Source of the DNA: an uncultured Clostridia bacterium
GTDB lineage: Bacteria > Bacillota > Clostridia > Christensenellales > DTU072
NCBI GenBank assembly: GCA_944362765.1
Contig: CALVTP010000004.1
Span: forward strand, 2,250-66,249
Direction: 5' to 3'
DNA: 64,000 nucleotides
The first letter of the stretch is position 1; every line of letters starts with the position of its first letter. Below are positions 6,956 through 59,100 of this stretch, piece after piece. The position numbers were made by a program, and so were the translations under genes. A model generated the notes under the pieces. That model did no database searches and was not told where the DNA came from. It saw only the letters and a list, made by a program, of their open reading frames with translations.

Positions 6956-9553
6956 ATGAACGCACAGAAATTTACTAAAAAGTCGCTGGAAGCGCTGGGG
7001 AGCGCCGAAAGCATTGCAATAGAAAATCAAAACATACAGGTGATGCCCGAGCACCTTACCTACGCGCTTGTCGACCAGGACGGCGGACTTATACCGTCGC
7101 TTCTTAAAAAAGCGGGCGTCGACGTCGACAGGCTGCTGGCACTGTTGGACGGCGCTATTCAAAAGATTCCCGCCGTCAGCGGTTCGGGGAGAGAACCCGG
7201 GAAGATCTATATTTCCCCTCTCACCGATAAAATTCTGACCGGGGCGGAGCGCCTTAGGGACAAGTCGAAGGACGAATACGTTTCCGTCGAGCATATCATG
7301 CTGTCTGTTTTCGACCACGCGACGGAGGAATTGAAGTCGATTTTCCGCGCCATGGGCATTACCCGGACGGCGTTCGAAGAGGAGCTGAAAAAGGTCAAGA
7401 CCGACAGGGTGACTTCGGACGAACCCGAAAACGCCTATGACGCCCTGAATAAGTACGGTTTCGACCTTGTCGAGCGCGCCAAGCAGCAAAAACTCGACCC
7501 CGTCATCGGGCGGGACGCAGAAATAAGAAACGTCATTCGTATTCTTTCCAGGAAGACCAAAAACAACCCCGTTCTGATAGGTGAACCGGGCGTAGGCAAG
7601 ACAGCCGTAGTCGAAGGATTGGCTCAGCGTATTGTGCGCGGCGACGTCCCGGAAGGGTTGAAGGACAAGACGGTTTTTGCGCTGGATATGGGCGCGCTGA
7701 TAGCAGGCGCCAAGTTCAGGGGAGAGTTCGAAGAGAGACTGAAAGCCGTTCTGAACGAAATAAAAAAGAGCGAAGGCAGAATAATTTTATTTATCGACGA
7801 GCTCCATACCATTGTCGGAGCCGGCAAATCGGACGGAGCGATGGACGCGGGAAACCTTTTAAAGCCGATGCTTGCAAGAGGGGAACTTCATTGTATAGGC
7901 GCGACGACTTTGGACGAGTACAGAAAGTACATCGAAAAGGACGCCGCGCTCGAAAGGCGCTTCCAGCCCGTCACCGTCGACGAACCGACCGTCGAGGACA
8001 CGATATCGATACTGCGTGGGTTGAAGGAAAGGTACGAAGTGTACCACGGAGTACGCATTCACGATTCGGCGTTGATAGCGGCGGCTACGCTTTCGCACCG
8101 CTATATCTCCGACAGATTCCTCCCCGACAAAGCCATCGACCTTGTTGACGAAGCTTCTGCGACGATAAGGACGGAGATAGACTCCATGCCCGGCGAAATG
8201 GACGACATCAGACGGAGGATAATGCAGCTTGAAATAGAGGAAATTTCCCTTCAAAAGGAGTCCGACAAGCTTTCCGCCGAGAGGCTGGAGACCATTCGGA
8301 AGGAACTTGCCGACGACAAGGAAAAGTTCAACGCCATGAAAGCGGAATGGGCAAAAGAAAAGGAAAGTATCCACGCCGTATCCGACCTGAAAGCCGAAAT
8401 AGAGAAATTGAACGGCGAGATAGAGGCGGCGCAGCGTAACGGCGATTACGCCCTGGCGGCGGAGCTGAAGTACGGAAAACTTCCCCAATTACAAAAGAAA
8501 CTGGAGGATGCAAGCCGCGAATCGGGGAAAAAGTACTCCCTTTTGAGGGACACCGTCACCGAAGAGGAAATCGCCAAAGTCGTCTCCCGTTGGACGGGCA
8601 TACCGCTTACCAAGCTTATGCAGGGAGAGCGCGAAAAGATTCTCCATCTCGGGGACATCCTCCACGAGCGCGTAATAGGGCAGGACGAGGCGGTCACCAA
8701 GGTCACCGAAGCCATCATCCGTTCGCGGGCGGGGATATCCGACCCCAACCGCCCGATAGGCTCCTTCCTCTTCCTGGGACCTACCGGAGTAGGTAAGACG
8801 GAGCTTGCGAAAGCGCTTGCCGAAAGCCTTTTCGACGACGAGCACAACATCGTCAGAATCGATATGACGGAGTATATGGAGAAGTTTTCGGTCTCCCGTC
8901 TTATCGGCGCCCCTCCGGGATACGTCGGTTATGACGAGGGCGGACAGCTTACCGAAGCCGTCAGGAGAAAACCTTACTCCGTCGTGCTGTTCGACGAAAT
9001 AGAGAAGGCGCATCCTGACGTATTCAACATCCTTTTGCAGGTTTTGGACGACGGAAGGATAACCGATTCGCAGGGAAGGACAGTGGACTTCAAAAACACC
9101 ATAATAATTCTTACTTCGAATCTCGGTTCCCAATTTTTGCTGGACGGTATCGACGACAACGGCGAAATCTCGGAGGAAGCCAAGGAAAGCGTCGAAAAGC
9201 TTTTGAAGCAGAGCTTCCGTCCCGAGTTTTTAAACAGACTCGACGAAATCGTCTTCTACAAGCCGCTGACGAAAAAAGACGTCGTGAAGATTGTCGAACT
9301 GTTGGTAAAGGGACTCGAAAAACGGCTCGAAGACAGGCAGTTGAAGCTGGAAATCACTCCGAAAGCCAAAGAGCTCATCGCCGAGCTCGGTTACGACCCC
9401 GTCTACGGTGCGAGACCGCTGAAGCGGTTCATGCAAAGCAGGATCGAGACTCTTATCGCCCGCGTCATTCTCTCCGACGACCCCGCTCCCGGCGACGAGA
9501 TAGTCGTCGGCGCCGACAACGAAGATTTCCGCGTCGAAGTCAGGACGAAATAG
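6956..9553 (+). CDS. clpB: ATP-dependent chaperone ClpB
   Basis: Two AAA+ modules ([16 protein letters not shown]), coiled-coil middle domain, KYGKLP and GARPLKR motifs; 865 aa. Confidence 0.97.
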
Positions 9554-50312: not shown

Positions 50313-51938
50313 ATGGAAGGAAAGATGAGCTTTGCTCAAAAACTCAATGCGTTTTCCCATAAGCTGTTCGGAACAAAACCGAACGACGGGGACGTTCAGC
50401 CGAAAGAGGCTTGGAGCTACGGTATAACGGGTATCGGACAAAACTTTATTTGTACCGTTATAGGTTCGTATCTGACCGTTTTTATGACGGACGCGTTGGG
50501 ATTCAACAACGACATAAAACTTGGTACATTGACAGCGTCGGTCGCGGTGGCGATATTGATGTTGGTCGCCAGAATATTCGACGCGTTGAACGACCCGATT
50601 ATGGGCTCCGTAGTCGACTACACCCGTACCAAATGGGGTAAGTGCCGTCCCTATCTTTTGTGGATGGCTATTCCTATCGGTTTATTGACGATATTATGCT
50701 TCCTGCCCGTTTATCCGAGGGATATGGAAGGCTTCCTCGCCTGCGGACTTATCTATGTAGTGTGGTCGGTGGCGTACACGATAGCCGACGTTCCGTATTG
50801 GGGATTGTCCACCACGATGACGAACAACACCACAAAGCGCGGCAATATTCTGACAATAGTGCGTCTTATGTGTACGGCGGGAGCGGGTATCGTCACCATC
50901 TTCGTCCCGATTATCACCGATGCCGTCACCGCCGAATTTAAAAATTCCGACGGCTATGTACTGGCACAATATGCGGATCAATACAGAAATACGCTGCAAT
51001 GGACGTACTTTATTATAGCAATAGTTCTGGTTGTCATTTCAATCCCGATGTTCTATATCGGTTTCAAAAACACCAAAGAGCGCTTCGGAACGATACAAAA
51101 CGGAGAAAAACCCCGTTCGCTCGGTAAAAACCTCAAATTATTGTTCAAAAACGACCAGGTCATGCTCGTCGTTCTGTCGGGTATACTTGGCGGTGCGAGA
51201 ATGGTGTATACATATACCGGCGGATTGTATTTTTGCAAATACGCGTTGGGCTCCGAATCGGCGTACAGCATTCTGACAATGCTGGTCATTCCGGGCGGAT
51301 TGATAGCTTCGGTATTGTGCCCGTGGCTCACCAAAAAATTCACCAAGAAATGGTCGTTCATCGGCTCGCATATTCTGGGAGCAGCCGCAATGGTATTGAT
51401 GCTGTTCATGTGGGACTTCGACAACGGTAAATTCATCGGCGGCGGCGAAGTCGGCACGGCAGGGCTGGTGGTCGCGGTAATCTGCATGATAATCGTCGGT
51501 ATCCCGCAAGGTATCGCCAATATCATGAGTTACGCAATGATAGGAGACACAGTCGAATACCTCGAATGGAAGACCGGCGAGAGGGCGGAAGGTATCTGCT
51601 TCTCGATGCAGACATTTATTTCCAAGATAGGCATGGCTGTCGGCGCTTTCATCGGTGTCCTTGCTTACAATATGAGCGGTATAAGCTCCGATGACCCCGT
51701 CGGCTCTATGACGATTGAAGGCTTGAACGACTTGTGGCTGATGCTTGTTCTGTCGAGCGCCGTAAGCTTTGTCGCTTGCGTTATCCCGCTGTTCTTCTAC
51801 CACATCACCGAGGATAAACAGCGCTGGTACGTCGGTGAGATAAGAAAAAGAAAGATAGCTTCCGGCGAACTTGCAGCCGAAACCGCCGGAGACGCCGAGA
51901 ATGTCGAAATGACGGTCGGCGAAGACAATAACGATTAA
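50313..51938 (+). CDS. glycoside-pentoside-hexuronide (MelB-like) MFS symporter
   Basis: RIFDALNDPIMG..VD.TRTKWGKCRPYLL, YTIADVPYWGL, DTVEY.EWKTG.RAEG. Confidence 0.9.
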   Translation: MEGKMSFAQKLNAFSHKLFGTKPNDGDVQPKEAWSYGITGIGQNFICTVIGSYLTVFMTDALGFNNDIKLGTLTASVAVAILMLVARIFDALNDPIMGSVVDYTRTKWGKCRPYLLWMAIPIGLLTILCFLPVYPRDMEGFLACGLIYVVWSVAYTIADVPYWGLSTTMTNNTTKRGNILTIVRLMCTAGAGIVTIFVPIITDAVTAEFKNSDGYVLAQYADQYRNTLQWTYFIIAIVLVVISIPMFYIGFKNTKERFGTIQNGEKPRSLGKNLKLLFKNDQVMLVVLSGILGGARMVYTYTGGLYFCKYALGSESAYSILTMLVIPGGLIASVLCPWLTKKFTKKWSFIGSHILGAAAMVLMLFMWDFDNGKFIGGGEVGTAGLVVAVICMIIVGIPQGIANIMSYAMIGDTVEYLEWKTGERAEGICFSMQTFISKIGMAVGAFIGVLAYNMSGISSDDPVGSMTIEGLNDLWLMLVLSSAVSFVACVIPLFFYHITEDKQRWYVGEIRKRKIASGELAAETAGDAENVEMTVGEDNND

Positions 51939-52023
51939 AACAGGTTTCCGAAACTTCGGAAAAGGGAACCCTAAACAGCATTTAACATATACCTGCGCTG
52001 CAAGGCGCCGGGTGGAGGAGAGT

Positions 52024-53385
52024 ATGTGTAAACGTAAAAAATTGACCAGGGCAGAGAGACTCAGAAGAGAATTGGTCGAAGACCACATCAAGACCAGGCG
52101 CGAAATGTTTGAAGACAGAGCCCGGCTGAACAGGCACGTGTTCCGGTACGGCGCGCCGCCTCCCGGCTCGGTGCTGTATGACGAGCATCACGATATGTCG
52201 GCGGCAAACGGCGTCTTCGTGAACGGCAGACAGAAGGATGCGCTTACGGTAATACGTCCCTCCGGCAGGGGTTATGAAGACATCGGAACGGGAGCCTACA
52301 ACACCGAAAAACCGGATTTTTATCGTGTGGCTCTGGCAGGGCGTCCCTACGAACCGGTCTTCCCGACCGCGGAGTCGAAGAAGTTCTTCATCGGCTGCAT
52401 TAAAAGGGCGCTGCCGCTCTTTCCGATAGAGACGGAAAGCTATTCGATTCTCGCGAATTCGGCGTATTTTGTCTTTGCGTCGTACGACCAAACAAGGATA
52501 AGTCTGCAGCGCTTCGTTTCGTTGGTTATCGAAACTTATGCCGACTATTACAACGAGGCTTTCGGGCATTCGGGTACTCCGTTCAGGGGGAGACCCGAAT
52601 TGAAAAAGCTGGATAAGCTCGAAGAGATTGCCGACCAGATAACCTTGGTTCAAAGGCAGCCGATAGTGCGCGGACACCGCCCGGACTATCCCTTCTCTTC
52701 GATAGGCGAAGGCGAGGGCGGACTGACAAGCACAACCGCGTTCAACGATCGCTTCGGCGCCGCAGGCAAGAAGGCGTTGCAGGAGGCAAGTACCGAGGAG
52801 TATTCCAAGCTTCACGCCGTCGACCTTTCTACCAGGCTGTTCGGTTTGAATCCCCGCCTCACCGAAGTAATCGAGGAAACGCTTATCGATTACGGCTGCT
52901 TTACCAAGCGCGCAATGCCCAATTTCCTCATGCCTAAGGTCGTTGCCGAAGTCAACGAGCGCTCCGGAGCCTCCTTCAAAAAGATTTCGCGGAAAATGGG
53001 CGGCGGCTGGCGCACCAGGTATGAGCTTCTGGTCAAAACCATTTGCGAATTGATTATCGAGTCGAAGCGCACGTTCGACTACGCCTGGCGCACTTTGCAG
53101 GTGGAAAAGTACCAAAAACGCCCCGTCGCAATCGACGTTGCCGAGGAGCTTTTTGATCGCCTCGGCTACTCGATAGACCAAATCTTCCAAATGATGGGTT
53201 TTGCTTATTGCGCCGTCATCAACGGCACCGTCCAATACTATAATGAAGATCTCCTAGTTCGTTTGATAAAGGACTACGCCTTAGAGCACAATTGCCCCGT
53301 CACGAAGGTTATAGAGTTGTTCGGCATCCGTAACTCCCACGAAGATCCCCAAAGGGTACTGCGCGTCTCTTCTTATTTTATGTAA
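52024..53385 (+). CDS. catalytically degenerate Y1 HUH (IS200/RAYT-like) transposase-fold protein with tandem HTH-like repeats
   Basis: Manual alignment to the RAYT pattern over 52318-52704. NHxH reads NSAY (52456-52467), YNxxxxRxGHLFQGR reads YNEAFGHSGTPFRGR, RYIHxNP reads TLVQRQP, and DYxWSS reads DYPFSS. RBS GGAGG precedes ATG 52024. Confidence 0.75.
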   Translation: MCKRKKLTRAERLRRELVEDHIKTRREMFEDRARLNRHVFRYGAPPPGSVLYDEHHDMSAANGVFVNGRQKDALTVIRPSGRGYEDIGTGAYNTEKPDFYRVALAGRPYEPVFPTAESKKFFIGCIKRALPLFPIETESYSILANSAYFVFASYDQTRISLQRFVSLVIETYADYYNEAFGHSGTPFRGRPELKKLDKLEEIADQITLVQRQPIVRGHRPDYPFSSIGEGEGGLTSTTAFNDRFGAAGKKALQEASTEEYSKLHAVDLSTRLFGLNPRLTEVIEETLIDYGCFTKRAMPNFLMPKVVAEVNERSGASFKKISRKMGGGWRTRYELLVKTICELIIESKRTFDYAWRTLQVEKYQKRPVAIDVAEELFDRLGYSIDQIFQMMGFAYCAVINGTVQYYNEDLLVRLIKDYALEHNCPVTKVIELFGIRNSHEDPQRVLRVSSYFM

Positions 53386-53937
53386 TTTTCTTCCCGCAAG
53401 ATTAAAGTTAGAGAACTTTAATTGCTCGCTTGAACAAAGCCTTATGGAAAAGTTCGTACCCCGTACGAGCTTTTTTCATAAGGAAGGATTAATTGCGGGA
53501 AGAAAATTACATACCCGCGGCTTGGGGCATATTTCACGGCGCTTTCGGGCAGGACAGGAGCGAAGCGACTGTCCGTTTTGGAGCCAACTCTTATAATACC
53601 GAAGAGAAGGAAGAGATATCGTCTTAGAAAGATAGATTTTGCGGCGGAGTGACGAAATGAGAGAGCGGCATACGACGTATGCCGCGAAAGATATTTCTAT
53701 ACTCCGCCACAAAAGATAATTTGTAAGGCGATAGAAATTTCTTCGAAGCGGTATTATTTTGATTAAAGTGGGGTACTATAAGCCAATATAGAGACAGCAT
53801 AGGGCATTATTCAAACAAGCTTTAGTTGAAGAAGCTCTTACAAGAAGAAATATTATTTATTGAATCGGTATGCTATAATTTCCGCATGAAAACAAATATA
53901 AATCTGAAAATTAATTCAAAAAACTCAGCAAAAACTA

Positions 53938-53966
53938 TTGCAATTTATCCCCAATTATGATATAAT
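53938..53966 (+). promoter_or_regulatory. sigmaA promoter P1 with no downstream ORF
   Basis: TTGCAA, 17 bp, TG-a-TATAAT, followed by TATAGGGGA. Confidence 0.75.
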
Positions 53967-54517
53967 TATAGGGGACGGATACGGATAATCGATAAGCTCT
54001 CGTTCCGTCGGCTCGAAGGGTGTTTGCCCTTGGGGCAAACACTTGGGCTACGCACTTTTGCTACCACAAAAGTGCGCGCCCGCGCTCGCTCGAATCGTGG
54101 CAGAGTCGTTAATATCGTGGCAGTTTTACATCACAAGGTAGTCGCTTCGCTTCGATTAGACTAGACCCACCCAACCGCCCACAAGTTTGCCGCTATGCGG
54201 GATAGGAATATTAATATTAGTATACGCATACCGCTATCCCCTTTCGCGTTCTCATGGCGATAACATCACACAAGGTTGCCGCTACGCGGATGATGGGGAA
54301 TATATAAGCTATAATTTGTTTTAACGCATTACGATATTCTTTCAATTCGCTTATATACTGGCGATATTACATTTCAATGTGTTTCTTCGCTCCGATATGA
54401 TTTAACTATATAAGCATATGGAATATTATTGATATAACAAATCATTTTAATTATTTAATTTCAGCAGGAAATTAAATATAAAATCGAAAATTATATCAAA
54501 TAATTTAACAAAAAGTA

Positions 54518-54546
54518 TTGCATTTTTAGGCATAATGTGATATAAT
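54518..54546 (+). promoter_or_regulatory. sigmaA promoter P2, paralog of P1
   Basis: TTGCAT, 17 bp, TG-a-TATAAT, followed by TTAAGGGGA; 580 bp downstream of P1. Confidence 0.75.
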
Positions 54547-54644
54547 TTAAGGGGATAGGGTTGCGATTACCGCCGAGGGGCGGAAGGTTTGGTGTGCGCA
54601 CTTTGCCGGGCTAAGCTGCGCGGCGGGTGTCTGCTCGAATCGTG

Positions 54645-54918
54645 GCAGAGTCGTGAGTATCGTGGCGGTTTTACGGCGTTGTTTGTGAAGTAAGGCAGAG
54701 TGGTGGGTATCATGGCGGTTTTATATTTTTGTTCAAATCATAGCTAAGTTTTTAATATCCTGGCAATCTTACGGCGCTATTGTTGTAATAAGTCATAGTC
54801 GTAAGTATCGTAGCTGTTTTACGGCTTTTTCGGTAAGATACAGCATGGTCGTAATAAGCATGGCGTTCTTATTATCTTTTAAATCTTTGCGTAGTCGTGA
54901 TACATTTAGCAATTCTAC
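54645..54918 (+). repeat. degenerate ~50-bp tandem array, about six units
   Basis: Core TATCGTGGC variants start at 54658, 54708, 54756, 54806, 54856 and ~54902. Confidence 0.7.
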
Positions 54919-56133
54919 ATCACAAGGTGGTCGCTTTGTTCCGAGAAGACTAGACCCACCCAACCGCCCACAAGGTTGCCGCTGCGCGGGATAGGAATAT
55001 TAATATCAGGATACGCATATCGTTATTCCGCTTTCGCATTCTCATAACTACATCTTTCCACAAGGTTGCCGCTGCGCGGATTGGAAATATAAAATAGTCA
55101 TGCTGTTATTCTGTATTTCCATTACAGCAGTTTTCCTCAAGGTTCCCGCTTCGCGGATAAGTGAATGGAAAATAGGTAATTAGTTCAAGTACTCCTATCG
55201 GTGAAGCCTGCTTTACCGTTTATTATAGCAAATTTAATATATTTATAATACCCGGCTATATTTCAATAATACCGCTTCGAAGAAATTTCTATCGCCTTAA
55301 AAATTATCTTTTGTGGCGGAGTATAGAAATATCTTTCGCGGCATACGTCGTATGCCGCTCTCTCATTTCGTCACTCCGCCGCAAAATCTATCTTTCTAAG
55401 ACGATATCTCTTCCTTCTCTTCGGTATTATAAGAGTTGGCTCCAAAACGGACAGTTGCTTCGCTCCTGTCCTGCTACGCGGGTATAATTTTCTTCCCGCA
55501 TCAATAGCTCCTTATGAAAAAAGTCCGTACGGGGTACGAACTTTTCCATAAGGGTTTGTTTTAACGAGCAATAAAAGTACTCTTACTTAAATCTTGCGGG
55601 AAGGGCTACAACCGACCAAACTCTCACTATAAAATACAGCCGTTGAGATGTAGACGAGCGTGTAAACTGTGAGATACGGAGCGGATTGGGGCAAGCAAAA
55701 GACAAAAGCTGTTTGAGTAGACTAAAGTCGGGATTGCGTTAGTTTGCGGCGAAGCAACCGGCGGAGGCGATGAAGCCTCTACCGGTTGCGATTTCGTGCG
55801 AAATTGGCGAAGGGCTGTATCGACATACGCTCCGAGGCAACTCCCGAAGGGAGGGAACTTGTTCCTTTCGCTCGAAAGCGCCGTGAAATATGCCCCTAGA
55901 CGCGGGTATACTATAATTTTCTTCCCGCATTAATAACTCCTTATGAAAAAAGTCCGCACGGGTGGCGAACTTTTTTATAAGGGTCTGTTCTCGCGAGCAA
56001 TTATAGTTCTCTTACTTAAATTTCGCGGGAAGAAAATTATAGTAAAATATATATTATATATACGCGCGCGTATGATAGAATGAGATACGGAGAAGTCTGC
56101 CCAAAACTTCTCTCAACTCATTCAGAGGTAAGT

Positions 56134-59100
56134 ATGAGAAAGAAGAGTATTATTACGATTATTGCGATTTTGGCTATGGCGGTGACGGCGCTTATTTGTC
56201 TTTCCGCCTGTGAAGAGGAATACAATATCGATCACCTTGAGATCTATTCTTCGCCGAGGACGGATTACTTTGTCGGAGAGGAATTTGATTATTCCGGTGC
56301 TTCGATAAGGGTAGTCTACACAAACGGCACCGATCGCATAGTTCAGGTAGACGGCACCATGATTTCTTCTTTCGATTCTTCTGTTTTGGGCTCGCAATAC
56401 ATAAAGATTTATTATCGGAACCACAGCGTTTCCGTGAAGGTCAACGTCAACCGTTACGCTACCGCATCCAGCGCGCTGGAAATTCCCGACACGAATTACA
56501 ATCTTATAGAGGGGCAACCGCTCAATCTAAATGATTCTTATTTGCTGATAACTTTTGAGGACGGCTCCGTTCGGCGCATCCCGATAACCGAATCGATGTG
56601 CTCCGGTTACGACGCGGGAAGAGTGGGCTCGCAGGACATCAACGTCAGCTACACCTTCCCCGACGGCGAGGTTGTCAACGTTTCGTTCAGCGTCACCGTA
56701 GAGGAGCGGGCGATAGAGTCGGTTTCGATACAGACTCTTCCGGACAGGAGCATATACTATCAAGGCGATCGCGAAGTGGCGCTTGAGGGCGGCGAACTCC
56801 ACGTCGTATATAACAACGGCTACACCGAAAGGCTTCCCATGGTGACGGGCGGTGCTCTTCTCGAAGGGTTGGAAGTGGTCTCTTTCGATTCCTCCGTCGA
56901 GAGCGGTTCCGTCAAGGTTGCGCTGAGGTATTACAATTTCGACATAAGCTTCAATGTTTCCGTCGAAGAGCGCGACATAAGGTCATTCGTCTTTGACAAA
57001 GACGCCATTCCCGTTCAGCTGGAAGACACCGCGCTGAATCTGGACGGAATGCTCTTTTCGATAACGTACACCAACGATGAGCAGCTCCTTCTCGAAGCGG
57101 GAGACGAAAACTTCGGCGACTATATAGATATTCGCGGATACGATCCTTCTCGGATCGGCACGCAGGAGCTCGTTATCAGTTTCCTGTACGGCGGAGTTGA
57201 ATTGGCTACAAAGTGGACGATGTCGGTCACGGTCAGGGAGCGCTCGCTTACGGAAATCGGTGTGTCCGGAACCAATCCGGTCATATATCTCGGCTCCGAC
57301 TACGAGCTTAACGAATTCAACCTGGAGCTTCGCTACGACAACGGCAATATCGACTTAAAAAGCCTTGCCGATGACTCGGTAAGGGTTGTCGACGTTACCG
57401 GATCCGGTCAACCGGAAGAAGTTACGGGATCCTTTGTCTATTACGAGCATGCCGACAGGGTTTGGAGAGTGGTCTATACCGAAACCGACGCGGAAGGAAC
57501 GGTTACGGAGTACGAATGCGAACACACCTTCGAGGTGACTATCCCCGCAGTCGTCTCCCATGAATTTTCGGGTTACGACGCCGAGGGCTCGTTGGTTTAT
57601 TTCGAATACGTCGACGGAGAACCTCGCTTTACCGCGTTCGCGGACGGGCTGAAATTGAAACTTACATATAATTCCGGCGTCGAATTGACGAGGGAACTCG
57701 ATTCTCTTTCGGGCTCCGGCTACGAAATAGAAGTGTCGACAGCGGCTGAAAGCGCAGGAAAAGCCACAGCCGACCTGACTATTATCGATATATACGGAGC
57801 CGACAGGGCGGAGTACACGATAGAAGGCGTCGACGCCTATGTAGCGCGCACCATCGAACGGGTAACGGTGACGGCGGCGGAGACATTTGACTGCCATCTT
57901 GTCCCCGAGGACACTTTCTCCGACCAAGGACTTACCGTCGAGGTCAAATACCTTGACTCCGAGGAGATCACATACTCCCTTCCGGATCCCGACTTCTACG
58001 CGGCGTTTTATTTCCTTTCGGAGGGTGCCGTCGATATCGCGGGCGGCATATTGATGTTCCCGGAGGAAGGGGGATACCTTGTCACCGTGGGTTCTGCCGA
58101 CATTACCGAAAATACCGAGATAATCTACCCCGGAAACTCCGATGAGGGCGGCATTGCGATCACGGTCGACTCCCTTCCCGATTCCGTCATCGGCGTATAT
58201 ACCGACGACAATGGCTTGAACGAAGTCGGCATGAGTTCGTCGGAGCCCGGAATCAACGTGCCTTACGGCACCGATATTCCGTTGGATAAGTATTATCTCG
58301 GCGTAAGATACACCGGGAAGAAGGACGGCGCCGAAATAATAAAATATTTCCCGTTGTCCGACAAACGGATAGAAGTTTCTTCGACCAAAGAGATGGGGAC
58401 CGGACCCAAAGAGATAACGATAACCTTCGAGGACGAAGGGAAGAAAATCTCTTCCGAAGGCTACTATGTTTACGTAAGCGACAGGGTGCCTGTCGGTATA
58501 ACGGTCACTTTGCCGAAGACGGTGTTTTACTACTATCCTAACAACGAAATAGAGCAGCCTTCCACAAGCGGAGTTATCATCAGAGTAAACTACGATAACG
58601 GCACGTTTGAAACCATTGCATATACCGACGCCGAAGGCAGCGTTGTTTTGACAAACTACAGTTGGTCGAATGACTTGTCGGAGCGGGAGCAGGAAGTGAC
58701 GATAACCTACTCGACGGAGGGAGTCGTCCTTCAGACGACGGCGACAATTTATCTGAAAGAAGCGATGCCGCAATCGATAACGTGGGGTTCGGGTACGGCA
58801 ATGTACGCCACGATAGGCGCCGGCGTTGAATTTTCTTTGGAAAACCTTTCTTATGCCGTTATCGGAAGTGACGGCGAATATATCACTCAACAAGACACTA
58901 TCGTCGAGAAAACGATCACTGCCACCTACGAAACGCCGAACGGTCTGTACTACAGCACGGAAACGGTGCGCGATATTCTTGATGAAATCACCTTCGACCC
59001 CGCGTCGTTCAATTCCAATTCTCTTGTGGCGCAGGGGGTAAGGCTCAGCTATCTCGGCTGCACATTCACGATAAACGTCAAGATAATTCATGAGAGTTCG

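Follow-up and report, generated by a model that had tools for sequence, protein, structure and literature searches.

Correia elements are MITEs of roughly 100-150 bp that have inverted repeats at their termini and duplicate a TA target, with promoters that often arise at the junction with the flanking DNA. In Neisseria, according to the account of Siddique et al. (2011; PMC3024310) that is given in PMC3575422, Correia elements bear strong sigma-70-type promoters at many unrelated loci, and Nijveen et al. (2012; PMC3575422) have described "putative mobile promoters". The BOX elements of Streptococcus pneumoniae and S. suis are composed of boxA, n copies of boxB, and boxC (Croucher et al., 2011; PMC3049150).

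Two units in the stretch of 64,000 nucleotides analysed here (the window) are built along lines similar to BOX. Both kinds of element are dispersed, species-restricted, intergenic and composite, with a fixed 5' module, a tandem array of a variable number of ~45-50-nt repeats and a fixed 3' module; both cluster with, and nest among, other repeats, including a terminator-like one (SPRITE in the case of BOX, module A here); and both are transcribable, in the units by prediction, and differ in array length among copies (PMC3049150). The units are unlike BOX in being several times larger (0.35-0.75 kb), in having a complete putative promoter of their own with an upstream A-tract, in having two leader types in a fixed order, and in having no terminal inverted repeats of their own. 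We regard them as working like BOX without filing them as members, the likeness being one of architecture, with no similarity found outside the species in the collections searched.

With Correia elements and mobile promoters the units share their nature as multi-copy non-coding repeats, predicted to take strong sigma-70-type promoters to many unrelated loci and to be able to rewire or add transcription beside genes. Unlike in Correia elements, the promoter is wholly internal, with a dedicated hairpin leader and then a tandem array downstream of it, the units are not consistently pointed at a gene, and their architecture is not that of a MITE: terminal inverted repeats were not found at the unit boundaries (~60 nt upstream of -35, and the T modules), the only inverted repeats being the flanking R and A modules. 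Taken together, we consider it probable that the units make up a species-specific family of about 25 promoter-bearing modular repeats, a mobile-promoter repeat of the BOX/Correia kind.

Two further systems invite comparison. The repeat mosaic around the units resembles REP/BIME mosaics, and REPINs with RAYT (TnpA-REP), in its short structured modules that occur in fixed combinations at gene 3' ends, in its GC-rich mini-hairpins (here of the GCG-N-AGC type, in the minus strands of T and R) and in the presence of a Y1/HUH-type gene. It is unlike them in that the modules are much longer than REPs and the Y1-like gene is conserved in species without the repeats; the co-occurrence typical of REPIN/RAYT was not seen, the HUH-like gene being present in 15 congeners and the units in none of 21, and the promoter units showed no REP doublet (REPIN) structure. 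CRISPR arrays likewise alternate conserved with variable segments behind an AT-rich, promoter-bearing leader, whereas the repeats of the units are only 68-71% alike, have a 48-50-nt period and occur at about 15 loci, with "spacers" of ~20 nt that fall into four or five classes recurring across loci. No cas genes are adjacent in the window, and a CRISPR-like or guide array was rejected on the degeneracy of the units and the recurrence of the "spacers" in few classes.

Organization of the Two Units

The layout of P1 and P2, the hairpins, the common motif and module T that the original prediction described are all present in the window (Table 1). Read directly, P1 has the -35 hexamer TTGCAA (53938-53943), a 17-nt spacer and TATAAT (53961-53966) with TG at -15/-14, followed by TATA and then by GGGGA from 53971; P2 has TTGCAT (54518-54523), a 17-nt spacer and TATAAT (54541-54546) with TG, followed by TTAA and then by GGGGA from 54551. 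A consensus scan returned P1 as the top promoter-like site of the region (10 of 12 matches, plus the TG), and P2 was absent from the list of promoter-like sites because TTGCAT agrees with TTGACA at just three of six positions; calling both promoters "consensus" was correct for the extended -10 and incorrect for the -35. The two 100-nt promoter modules (53876-53975 and 54456-54555) are 75% identical.

Table 1. Coordinates of features in and around the two units (positions in the window).
Feature	Position	Strand	Remarks
Palindromic module A	53379-53513	+	Starts on the stop codon of the HUH-like gene; two-way terminator-like hairpin
Repeat module R, left arm	53549-53758	+	
Unit 1 (type 1) promoter module	53876-53972	+	Upstream part AT-rich; invariant CAAAAACTA; likely start in GGGGA, ~53971-53973
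Type-1 leader	53973-54087	+	Three hairpins: H1 ~53974-54009, H2 54018-54044, H3 54045-54081
Common junction and single array unit of unit 1	54088-54129	+	Junction GCTCGAATCGTGGCAGAGTCGT at 54088-54109, leading into the array unit
Terminal modules of unit 1	T1 54128-54236, T2 54237-54310	+	Carry CACAAGGT-(G/T)NCGC-N-GCG motifs
Linker X, unit 1 to unit 2	54311-54455	+	Start is a degenerate array-like unit; end AT-rich
Unit 2 (type 2) promoter module	54456-54552	+	Likely start in GGGGA, ~54551-54553
Type-2 leader and common junction motif	54553-54654	+	Leader 54553-54632, junction 54633-54654
Degenerate tandem array of unit 2	54644-54920	+	48-50-nt period, six units
T1', T2' and T3 of unit 2	54917-55264	+	
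Repeat module R, right arm	55265-55474	-	99% complementary to the left arm
Further module A copies	55483-55603, 55909-56044	-	
Promoter-like block of the giant lipoprotein gene	56053-56081	+	ATTATA, 17-nt spacer, TG + TAGAAT; spacer CGCGCGCG

In the type-1 leader the hairpin arm GTGTTTGCCC (54020-54029) is complementary to GGGCAAACAC (54033-54042) and CGCACTTTTG (54051-54060) to CAAAAGTGCG (54067-54076), and H3 has an outer clamp, GGGC/GCCC. This leader folds at -60.4 kcal/mol (z = -4.7 relative to shuffled sequence). The type-2 leader reaches -42.3 kcal/mol on the plus strand vs -25.4 on the minus strand with a z of only -1.1, and neither it nor the array (z = +0.2) nor module T (z = 0.06) folds better than shuffled sequence. 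Significant structure is limited to the type-1 leader, and the GC-rich structured leader that had been expected in each unit was borne out statistically for P1 and not for P2.

Both leader types run into the same junction, which was read directly in both units, is found in nearly all copies and has the general form GCTCGAATCGTGGC(A/G)GAGTCGT. The array unit of unit 1 occupies ~54099-54129 and ends in ATCGTGGCAGTTTTAC. The plus strand of the unit 2 array is G+T-rich, with strong strand bias, and its units, which are 68-71% alike within the array, share a recurring head, ATCGTGGCRG. The 3' module common to both units is 81% identical between 54093-54240 and 54882-55029, and its continuation (54237-54291 and 55027-55081) is 80% identical. 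T3 carries a terminator-like hairpin, CGGTGAAGCCTGCTTTACCG + TTTATTAT (55199-55218), and another is found when the right arm of R is read on the plus strand (GCGGCATACGTCGTATGCCGC + TCTCTCATTT, 55338-55358).

A Dispersed, Species-Specific Family

In the 1.71-Mb genome we found about 25 promoter units, 15 of type 1 and 10 of type 2, where the count is that of a regular-expression search returning 20 units under strict and 25 under relaxed patterns. BLAST of the P, leader, array and T modules placed them in about 15 cassettes over 17 contig stretches, within a larger mosaic of repeat modules. In independent chicken-gut samples DNA read depth on the units was 13-25 times that of single-copy flanks, making it unlikely that the copies are assembly artefacts. 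The two units in the window are members of a dispersed, species-specific modular intergenic repeat with its own conserved putative promoter, and with about 25 copies of that repeat they are therefore not two RNA genes dedicated to the transposase next to them. The two-copy duplication of the original prediction is thus replaced by a genome-wide family, and, of its paralogous non-coding pair, the non-coding part stood and the locus-specific part did not.

Each unit runs from a promoter module of ~100 nt (an A-rich upstream part, TTGCA(A/T), a 17-nt spacer and TGnTATAAT) through a leader of either type and the junction to an array of one to eight ~50-nt units, whose variable halves belong to a few recurring classes, and then to T1/T2/T3. 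Cassettes begin with one type-1 unit ~120 nt after R and continue with zero to three type-2 units, which are preceded by X or T. R lies upstream of all type-1 units genome-wide, separated from them by a variable segment of 118-132 nt, and linker X lies upstream of seven of the ten type-2 promoter modules; T1 is present in 24 copies and T2 in 16.

The surrounding mosaic contains palindromic, terminator-carrying repeats that begin on the stop codons of ordinary genes, and module A is present in more than 100 copies. Genes upstream of the cassettes are unrelated to one another, with N-termini that, from reading the sequence, resemble DnaA, ribosomal protein L10, GAPDH and cysteinyl-tRNA synthetase. 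The next gene is co-directional at six loci and convergent at four or five, and the remaining cassettes are at contig ends. Because so many cassettes end contigs we considered tandem promoters in the style of rRNA operons, which were rejected: the complete loci lead into protein genes, with neither rRNA nor tRNA found.

The units were not found in 40 related genomes, including those of 21 congeneric species. At the orthologous locus the nearest relatives have a spacer of 240-900 nt with an ordinary terminator and a conserved giant-gene promoter, and no cassette; the transposase-like gene there directly precedes the terminator and the giant-gene promoter, and the 2.66-kb mosaic is therefore a species-specific insertion. 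A GTDB-wide pattern scan yielded 18 single chance matches in unrelated phyla and no true units. JGI metagenome contigs gave no true match (one hit was an unrelated high-GC terminator), a phage collection gave one AT-rich chance match only, and a plasmid collection gave none. For the units we identified neither an enzyme that could mobilise them nor a signature of insertion. The Rfam 15 covariance models had no match at E <=1 over 51500-56500 and none at gathering score at 10 other paralogous loci, such that the Infernal/Rfam search proposed earlier returned no known RNA family over 11 loci.

Constraint on Promoters and Stems

Variation among the copies is unevenly distributed. Among the 15 type-1 copies the hexamers have zero or one minor alleles per column vs up to 7 of 15 in the spacer, and among the 10 type-2 copies both hexamers are invariant; the difference between hexamers and spacer gave Mann-Whitney p = 0.0015 for type 1 and 0.0005 for type 2. 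In the type-1 leader there were 0.24 minor alleles per column at paired positions vs 1.12 at unpaired positions, and in the type-2 leader 0.07 in stems vs 0.75 in loops. One-sided stem changes comprised 10 G.U pairs, which are tolerated on the plus strand, vs 4 A.C. The best-conserved parts of the units are the promoter and leader, not the array.

As judged from this pattern, the putative -35, the extended -10 and the hairpin stems are under purifying selection across copies. That hexamers and stems are far more conserved than spacer and loops argues that the putative promoters work and that the plus-strand RNA matters. Copies diverge from each other by 4-11% and yet the promoters are intact throughout, which could reflect a host function rather than a parasitic one. 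Promoters of unrelated genes in this genome share the layout of A-tract, TTG.A., 17 nt and TATAAT.

Coding Potential and RNA Data

As had been predicted, there is no ORF of at least 60 aa in 53938-55160, where the longest has 56 aa and lies on the minus strand. A 30-aa frame opens with GTG at 54020, but GAAGG abuts its start without usable spacing. At 48-50 nt, the array period is no multiple of three. Small toxic-peptide genes, as in type I toxin-antitoxin systems, were rejected on the ORF lengths and on an array period that is not triplet.

The runs of study P6 that are labelled "RNA-Seq" behave as DNA, having the same repeat-to-flank depth ratio as DNA runs. In contigs of metatranscriptome X26 the units have a depth of 3-8 vs 3-4 for fusA, a comparison in which the EF-G/EF-Tu calibration is confounded by conserved segments of other organisms. 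Over the repeat modules the X26 profile scales with DNA copy number, and the promoter itself is included in one contig; the signal could stem from DNA carry-over or from read-through.

Alternative Explanations

The cassettes might be portable expression devices, that is, domesticated upstream promoters that drive or enhance expression of the gene downstream, giant surface lipoprotein genes above all, with a leader that possibly makes RNA polymerase terminator-resistant and with array length or R-arm inversion giving rise to strain or phase variation. We regard this as unlikely, although the neighbouring genes lend it some appeal: five of the six co-directional next genes encode secreted, membrane or lipoproteins, and three are lipoproteins of at least 1000 aa (1108, 4103 and 9651 aa), as compared with 3.9% of ORFs genome-wide and a binomial expectation of ~0.23 genes of that size in six, a share that hints at non-random placement of the cassettes and that tells against the reading we favour. 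Such a role would also fit the constraint on the promoters, the 99% identity of the local R arms, the lack of a strong terminator between unit and 9651-aa gene, and the position of the leader hairpins directly 3' of the start site, as in known processive-antitermination RNAs. However, 45 of the 48 genes of at least 1000 aa have no cassette, four or five cassettes aim at the 3' end of a convergent gene, and between P2 and the giant gene lie T3, R in minus orientation and two A modules, all with terminator-like hairpins. The giant gene, moreover, retains its own promoter-like block, which is kept in relatives that have no cassette, no Rfam antiterminator family matched, and R copies from different loci are up to 99.5% identical, hence the 99% seen here does not point specifically to inversion.

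A multi-copy family of trans-acting non-coding RNAs, for example a protein sponge acting through the repeated units or their CACAAGGU motifs, with copy number kept for abundance, would account for the conserved promoters and leader stems and for a G/U-rich, weakly folded body with repeated short motifs like that of sponge RNAs. CACAAGGU is one base off the CsrA-type motif, ACARGGA. We find this quite improbable: the family is in no congener, unit number and module content vary freely among copies, there is no Rfam match, and the summed X26 signal of ~25 copies amounts to only about that of one mRNA. Nor was a CsrA gene found (PF02599 had no match in this genome, which is 92% complete, and control genomes were positive), and a CsrA sponge, considered for the likeness of CACAAGGT to a CsrA site, was rejected on that ground.

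The arrays could also act as double-stranded DNA, presenting phased sites to a regulator or nucleoid protein with the promoter being incidental, a role for which their regular 48-50 bp period and recurring ATCGTGGCRG head might be suited. But 50 bp is 4.8 helical turns, and successive sites would therefore be rotated by ~85 degrees; the array units are just 68-71% alike, promoter and leader are the best-conserved parts, and the strong G+T strand bias indicates a strand-specific property, and we give this idea very little credence.

HUH proteins recognise GC-rich mini-hairpin substrates, and the original prediction had proposed the two transcripts as possible ligands of the adjacent protein. 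Adjacency in the window, the GCG-N-AGC mini-hairpins that T and R carry on their minus strand, and the presence in the genome of an intact Y1 transposase of the IS200 type would all be compatible with RNA or ssDNA ligands of a presumed catalytically dead HUH/Y1-type protein. Yet tblastn of the genome found the HUH-like gene in single copy, adjoining one of ~15 cassettes, with no paralogues beside the others; 15 congeners keep the gene, with the giant gene following in all eight flanks that were read, and the units are in none of the 21 congeneric genomes. Pfam shows no domain in the HUH-like protein that would predict RNA binding. The ligand proposal is therefore unsupported, and strikes us as barely credible.

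A more speculative possibility, and a very improbable one in our estimation, is that the cassettes are a domesticated "sterile transcript" device, in which transcription driven by a constitutive promoter and hairpin leader, and passing through an array whose non-template strand is G/T-rich, would form R-loops that open up the DNA and make the minus-strand T/R mini-hairpins accessible to Y1/HUH proteins (the RAYT-like protein, presumed dead, or the intact transposase of the IS200 type), coupling transcription to ssDNA recombination or mosaic spread, or to control of nearby giant surface-protein genes. There is a formal parallel with the promoter-plus-switch-repeat regions of immunoglobulin class switching.

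Predicted Transcription and Consequences

For the mobile-promoter repeat that we favour, the predicted course of events is that host sigma-A RNA polymerase would fire from each unit to give a non-coding plus-strand RNA with the hairpin leader first, which would then traverse the G/U-rich array and end at the terminator-like hairpins of T3, of R in minus orientation or of A. In the window this would produce RNAs of ~0.7 kb from P2 and up to ~1.3 kb from P1. The family probably spread as DNA, in the manner of a non-autonomous repeat, since conservation begins ~60 nt upstream of -35, and array length may shift as it does in boxB arrays, through slippage or unequal recombination. The chief cellular effect is expected to be cis-acting, by added outward transcription of whatever lies downstream, which at some loci is a giant surface lipoprotein gene. 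Neither a dedicated RNA acting in trans nor a partnership with the HUH protein forms part of our reading.

If the promoters fire, this 1.7-Mb gut bacterium would have ~25 additional strong starts with no counterpart in its sister species, dispersed downstream of housekeeping genes and ahead of some giant surface lipoprotein genes, and the family would be a clear natural case of repeat expansion propagating promoters. With hexamers and stems intact through 4-11% divergence, the case could show whether such promoters serve the element or the host. Annotators should mask the units, together with the terminator repeats anchored on stop codons, as a family of repeats instead of calling the units locus-specific sRNA genes or HUH partners.

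Flanking Repeat Modules

The ends of IS200 were considered as a source of the modules and rejected, the ends of the single intact copy of an IS200-type transposase being unlike them. Copies of R at different loci have a mean identity of 94.5%, and with the maximum given above, the 99% identity of the two local arms was rejected as a sign of inversion. Opposite-strand joints in Logan contigs match "R+ T3-" arrangements that occur elsewhere, and the 210-nt R arms are multi-copy.

Architecture and copy number of the units

The two promoter units, first described as a duplicated pair, recur genome-wide: a promoter regular expression applied independently of module mapping found 20 under strict and 25 under relaxed settings, and BLAST of 53376-56060 against its own 1.71-Mb, 68-contig assembly gave hundreds of matches on most contigs. 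We think it rather probable that the units are a BOX-like modular interspersed repeat with its own promoter, which multiplied in one species alongside a terminator repeat anchored at stop codons. The likeness is one of analogy, to BOX as a modular interspersed repeat (PMC3049150) and to Correia elements, or "putative mobile promoters" (PMC3575422), as repeats carrying their own promoter.

The region was divided into modules (A, L, R, Y, promoter, leader types 1 and 2, array, T1, T2, T3 and X), and each was mapped on the genome. Matches numbered 116 for A (a 135-nt palindrome), 54 for R (210 nt), 25 for the promoter modules, 15 for the type-1 leader and 10-11 for the type-2 leader. Module order is fixed: every cassette opens with a type-1 unit, 118-132 nt 3' of an R module, and type-2 units follow in tandem, preceded by X or T. 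The array 3' of the junction motif has 1-8 units of 48-50 nt each, whose variable halves belong to a few classes that recur at different loci; this makes the array a variable-number tandem repeat of degenerate units rather than a spacer archive, and a CRISPR array was rejected. DNA depth over the units was 13-25 times that of single-copy flanks in runs of independent chicken-gut studies, indicating that their copy number is no assembly artefact. The repeat clusters combined make up at least 3.5% of the assembly, and many contigs terminate in them.

Also found at the start of R was a 13-nt core, GGAGCGAAGCGAC, within a GGACAG...CTGTCC hairpin; in most copies genome-wide the 3' end of the array is marked by the reverse complement of this core, GTCGCTTCGCTCC. 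At GTCGCTTCGCTCC the continuation differs by copy, being T1, X or R-like sequence, and the GGAGCGAAGCGAC/GTCGCTTCGCTCC site has the look of a junction or recombination point. Between the 50-nt array and a 9651-aa gene there is another tandem repeat, AGGGTTGGCGAGGGTCGGCAGAGAC, with four units of ~25 nt. The array plus strand is G+T-rich, with GC skew up to +0.37, and the fold of the C+A-rich minus strand (-6.6 kcal/mol, z = +2.4) is significantly weaker than that of shuffled sequence.

Positions of the features (window coordinates unless a contig, C, of the window's own assembly G000 or an extracted locus, L, is named)
Feature	Position	Detail
Mosaic region	53376-56046	2.66 kb
Module A, window copies	53379-53513; 55483-55603; 55909-56044	
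Module A, examples elsewhere	G000:C17:28735-28854; C14:36911-37030	
Putative two-way terminator in A	53450-53478	GTTCGTAC-CCC-GTACGAGC
GGAGCGAAGCGAC and hairpin	53558-53580	start of R
P1 (type-1 promoter)	53938-53966	TTGCAA, 17-nt spacer, TG-TATAAT; then TATA, GGGGA
Hairpins 3' of P1	54020-54042; 54051-54076	
GCTCGAATCGTGGCAGAGTCGT	54088-54109; 54633-54654	one in each unit
GTCGCTTCGCTCC variants	54139-54151; 54929-54941	one and three positions different
P2 (type-2 promoter)	54518-54546	TTGCAT, 17-nt spacer, TG-TATAAT; then TTAA, GGGGA
Array folded on minus strand	54646-54795	
T3	terminator-like hairpin at 55199-55218	
R(-)	terminator-like hairpin at 55338-55358	
Giant-gene promoter-like block	56053-56081	congeners, e.g. 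L047:366-394, L048:446-474
AGGGTTGGCGAGGGTCGGCAGAGAC repeat	G000:C2:85985-86095	L009 ~1958-2068
IS200-type transposase, intact and broken copies	G000:C34:35-391; G000:C7:7728-8068	
A-Y repeat locus in relative G001	L055 ~6980-7100	

Promoters, leaders and putative RNA

Both promoter layouts were confirmed, as were the hairpins behind P1, the shared GCTCGAATCGTGGCAGAGTCGT, a 3' module common to the two units (80-81% identical) and the lack of any ORF of 60 aa or more in the unit region. The -35 hexamers match TTGACA at 4/6 (P1) and 3/6 (P2) positions, and a generic consensus scan passes P1 only; promoter strength would lie in the TG-extended -10. The prediction of structured leaders held statistically for the P1 type alone, which folds significantly better than shuffled sequence (z = -4.7). 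The P2 leader (z = -1.1), the array (z = +0.2) and module T (z = 0.06) show no such significant excess, and the complete putative transcripts, of 358 nt and 648 nt, gave z = -1.7 and -0.6.

Divergence among unit copies, at 4-11%, is sufficient for a test of constraint. The -35 hexamer and 9-nt extended -10 carry 0-1 minor alleles per column in the copies compared (15 of type 1, 10 of type 2), whereas the 14-nt spacer between them reaches 7/15 (Mann-Whitney p = 0.0015 for type 1, 0.0005 for type 2). Directly 5' of the -35, CAAAAA(C/G)TA is invariant, and conservation starts ~60 nt 5' of the -35; unrelated gene promoters in the genome have the same layout of A-tract, TTG.A., 17 nt and TATAAT. 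Paired leader columns average 0.24 minor alleles against 1.12 for unpaired ones in type 1, and 0.07 against 0.75 in type 2. One-sided stem changes on the plus strand comprise 10 G.U versus 4 A.C (binomial p ~0.09), several G.U pairs are fixed in leader stems, and the type-2 leader folds at -42.3 kcal/mol on the plus strand versus -25.4 on the minus. Together these constraint and folding data favour, short of proof, promoters that work and a plus-strand RNA in which the 5' hairpins are important.

Depths in RNA and DNA runs were taken from Logan contigs. Runs labelled "METAGENOMIC RNA-Seq" did not differ from DNA runs in their repeat-to-flank depth ratio. In X26, the one true metatranscriptome, unit contigs had depths of 3-8, similar to the 3-4 of the organism's own fusA; however, depth over the repeat modules follows their DNA copy number and the promoter itself lies within one of the contigs, as DNA carry-over or read-through would also produce.

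Distribution in relatives

No match to the 211-nt promoter, leader and junction stretch was found in 40 related genomes, 21 congeneric species among them. When one genome for each GTDB species was scanned, the junction motif gave nothing but scattered chance matches, the leader-hairpin pattern matched a single JGI metagenome contig sequence, an unrelated high-GC terminator, and phage and plasmid collections yielded nothing; in the collections searched, promoter units were thus not detected outside this species. Rfam assigned no family at 11 loci. A transposase-like HUH gene, upstream of the units in the window, occurs in 15 congeners, and in all eight with downstream DNA read the giant lipoprotein gene lies 240-900 nt 3' of it. 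In these congeners the intervening DNA has an ordinary terminator, a hairpin plus T-run, and a conserved promoter whose own spacer contains CGCGCGCG, which indicates that the 2.66-kb mosaic is a species-specific insertion. The window retains this promoter-like block, with its unusual CGCGCGCG-containing spacer and TG-extended -10, conserved over the eight congeners inspected. Four congeners have 1-4 weak copies of module A (68-81% identity), so the mosaic family predates its expansion in this species.

Genomic context and alternative functions

Every cassette is located 3' of a gene, behind A, (L) and R, and is directed away from that gene; by our reading of the sequences, the genes upstream of other cassettes have N-termini resembling DnaA, ribosomal protein L10, GAPDH and a cysteinyl-tRNA synthetase. 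The far-side gene is co-directional at 6 loci and convergent at 4-5, and other cassettes are at contig ends. Three of the six co-directional genes encode lipoproteins (1108, 4103 and 9651 aa), which exceeds chance (p ~0.001) given that, among 1237 ORFs of at least 100 aa, 48 reach 1000 aa or more, and no terminator-like element of note separates the unit from the 9651-aa gene. The units could on these grounds serve as portable cassettes for the expression or antitermination of downstream (surface-protein) genes, but no cassette accompanies 45 of the 48 giant genes, and in the window T3, R(-) and two A modules intervene before the giant gene, so we consider this unlikely. Some downstream genes may therefore be affected in cis, though this is not general.

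A trans-acting multi-copy RNA seems less likely still. The suggestion that the units are ligands of the HUH protein was not borne out, the gene being single-copy, adjoining one of ~15 cassettes and present in congeners that have no units, and we judge it very improbable; double-stranded DNA binding arrays we hold to be just as improbable. A CsrA sponge was ruled out because the genome has no csrA, and an rRNA leader was rejected since protein genes follow the complete loci and neither rRNA nor tRNA was found. The interspersed repeat with its own promoter is the reading we prefer.

The share of ORFs of at least 1000 aa (maximum 9651 aa) is unusually large for a 1.7-Mb genome, and many of them have lipoprotein-type signal peptides.

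Module A and an IS200-type transposase

At 33 or more genes, palindromic module A (>100 copies, core TAATTTTCTTCCCGC...GCGGGAAGAAAATTA) begins on the stop codon, in every case in the orientation of the gene. Its inverted repeat extends 2-18 nt past the conserved core into copy-specific flank, so that the last codons of the gene are mirrored on the far side (e.g., GAGTGGGAGTAA|...|TTACTCCCACTC); this pattern points to one of three origins: targets that were themselves palindromic, a target duplicated in inverted form, or template switching that extended the palindrome outwards. A candidate intrinsic terminator that would act in both directions lies within A: GTTCGTAC-CCC-GTACGAGC, with T6 behind it on the plus strand and T4 on the minus. 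The HUH gene in two related genomes (G010 and G007) ends in an ordinary CCGGCGCC...GGCGCCGG plus T7 terminator, and native terminators seem, from sequence comparison, to have been replaced by module A in this species. An IS200-type Y1 transposase is encoded intact in the genome (134 bits to PF01797), with ends that bear no resemblance to the modules; a second copy is broken. In the relative G001, an IS of this type has its right end immediately beside the single A-Y repeat locus.
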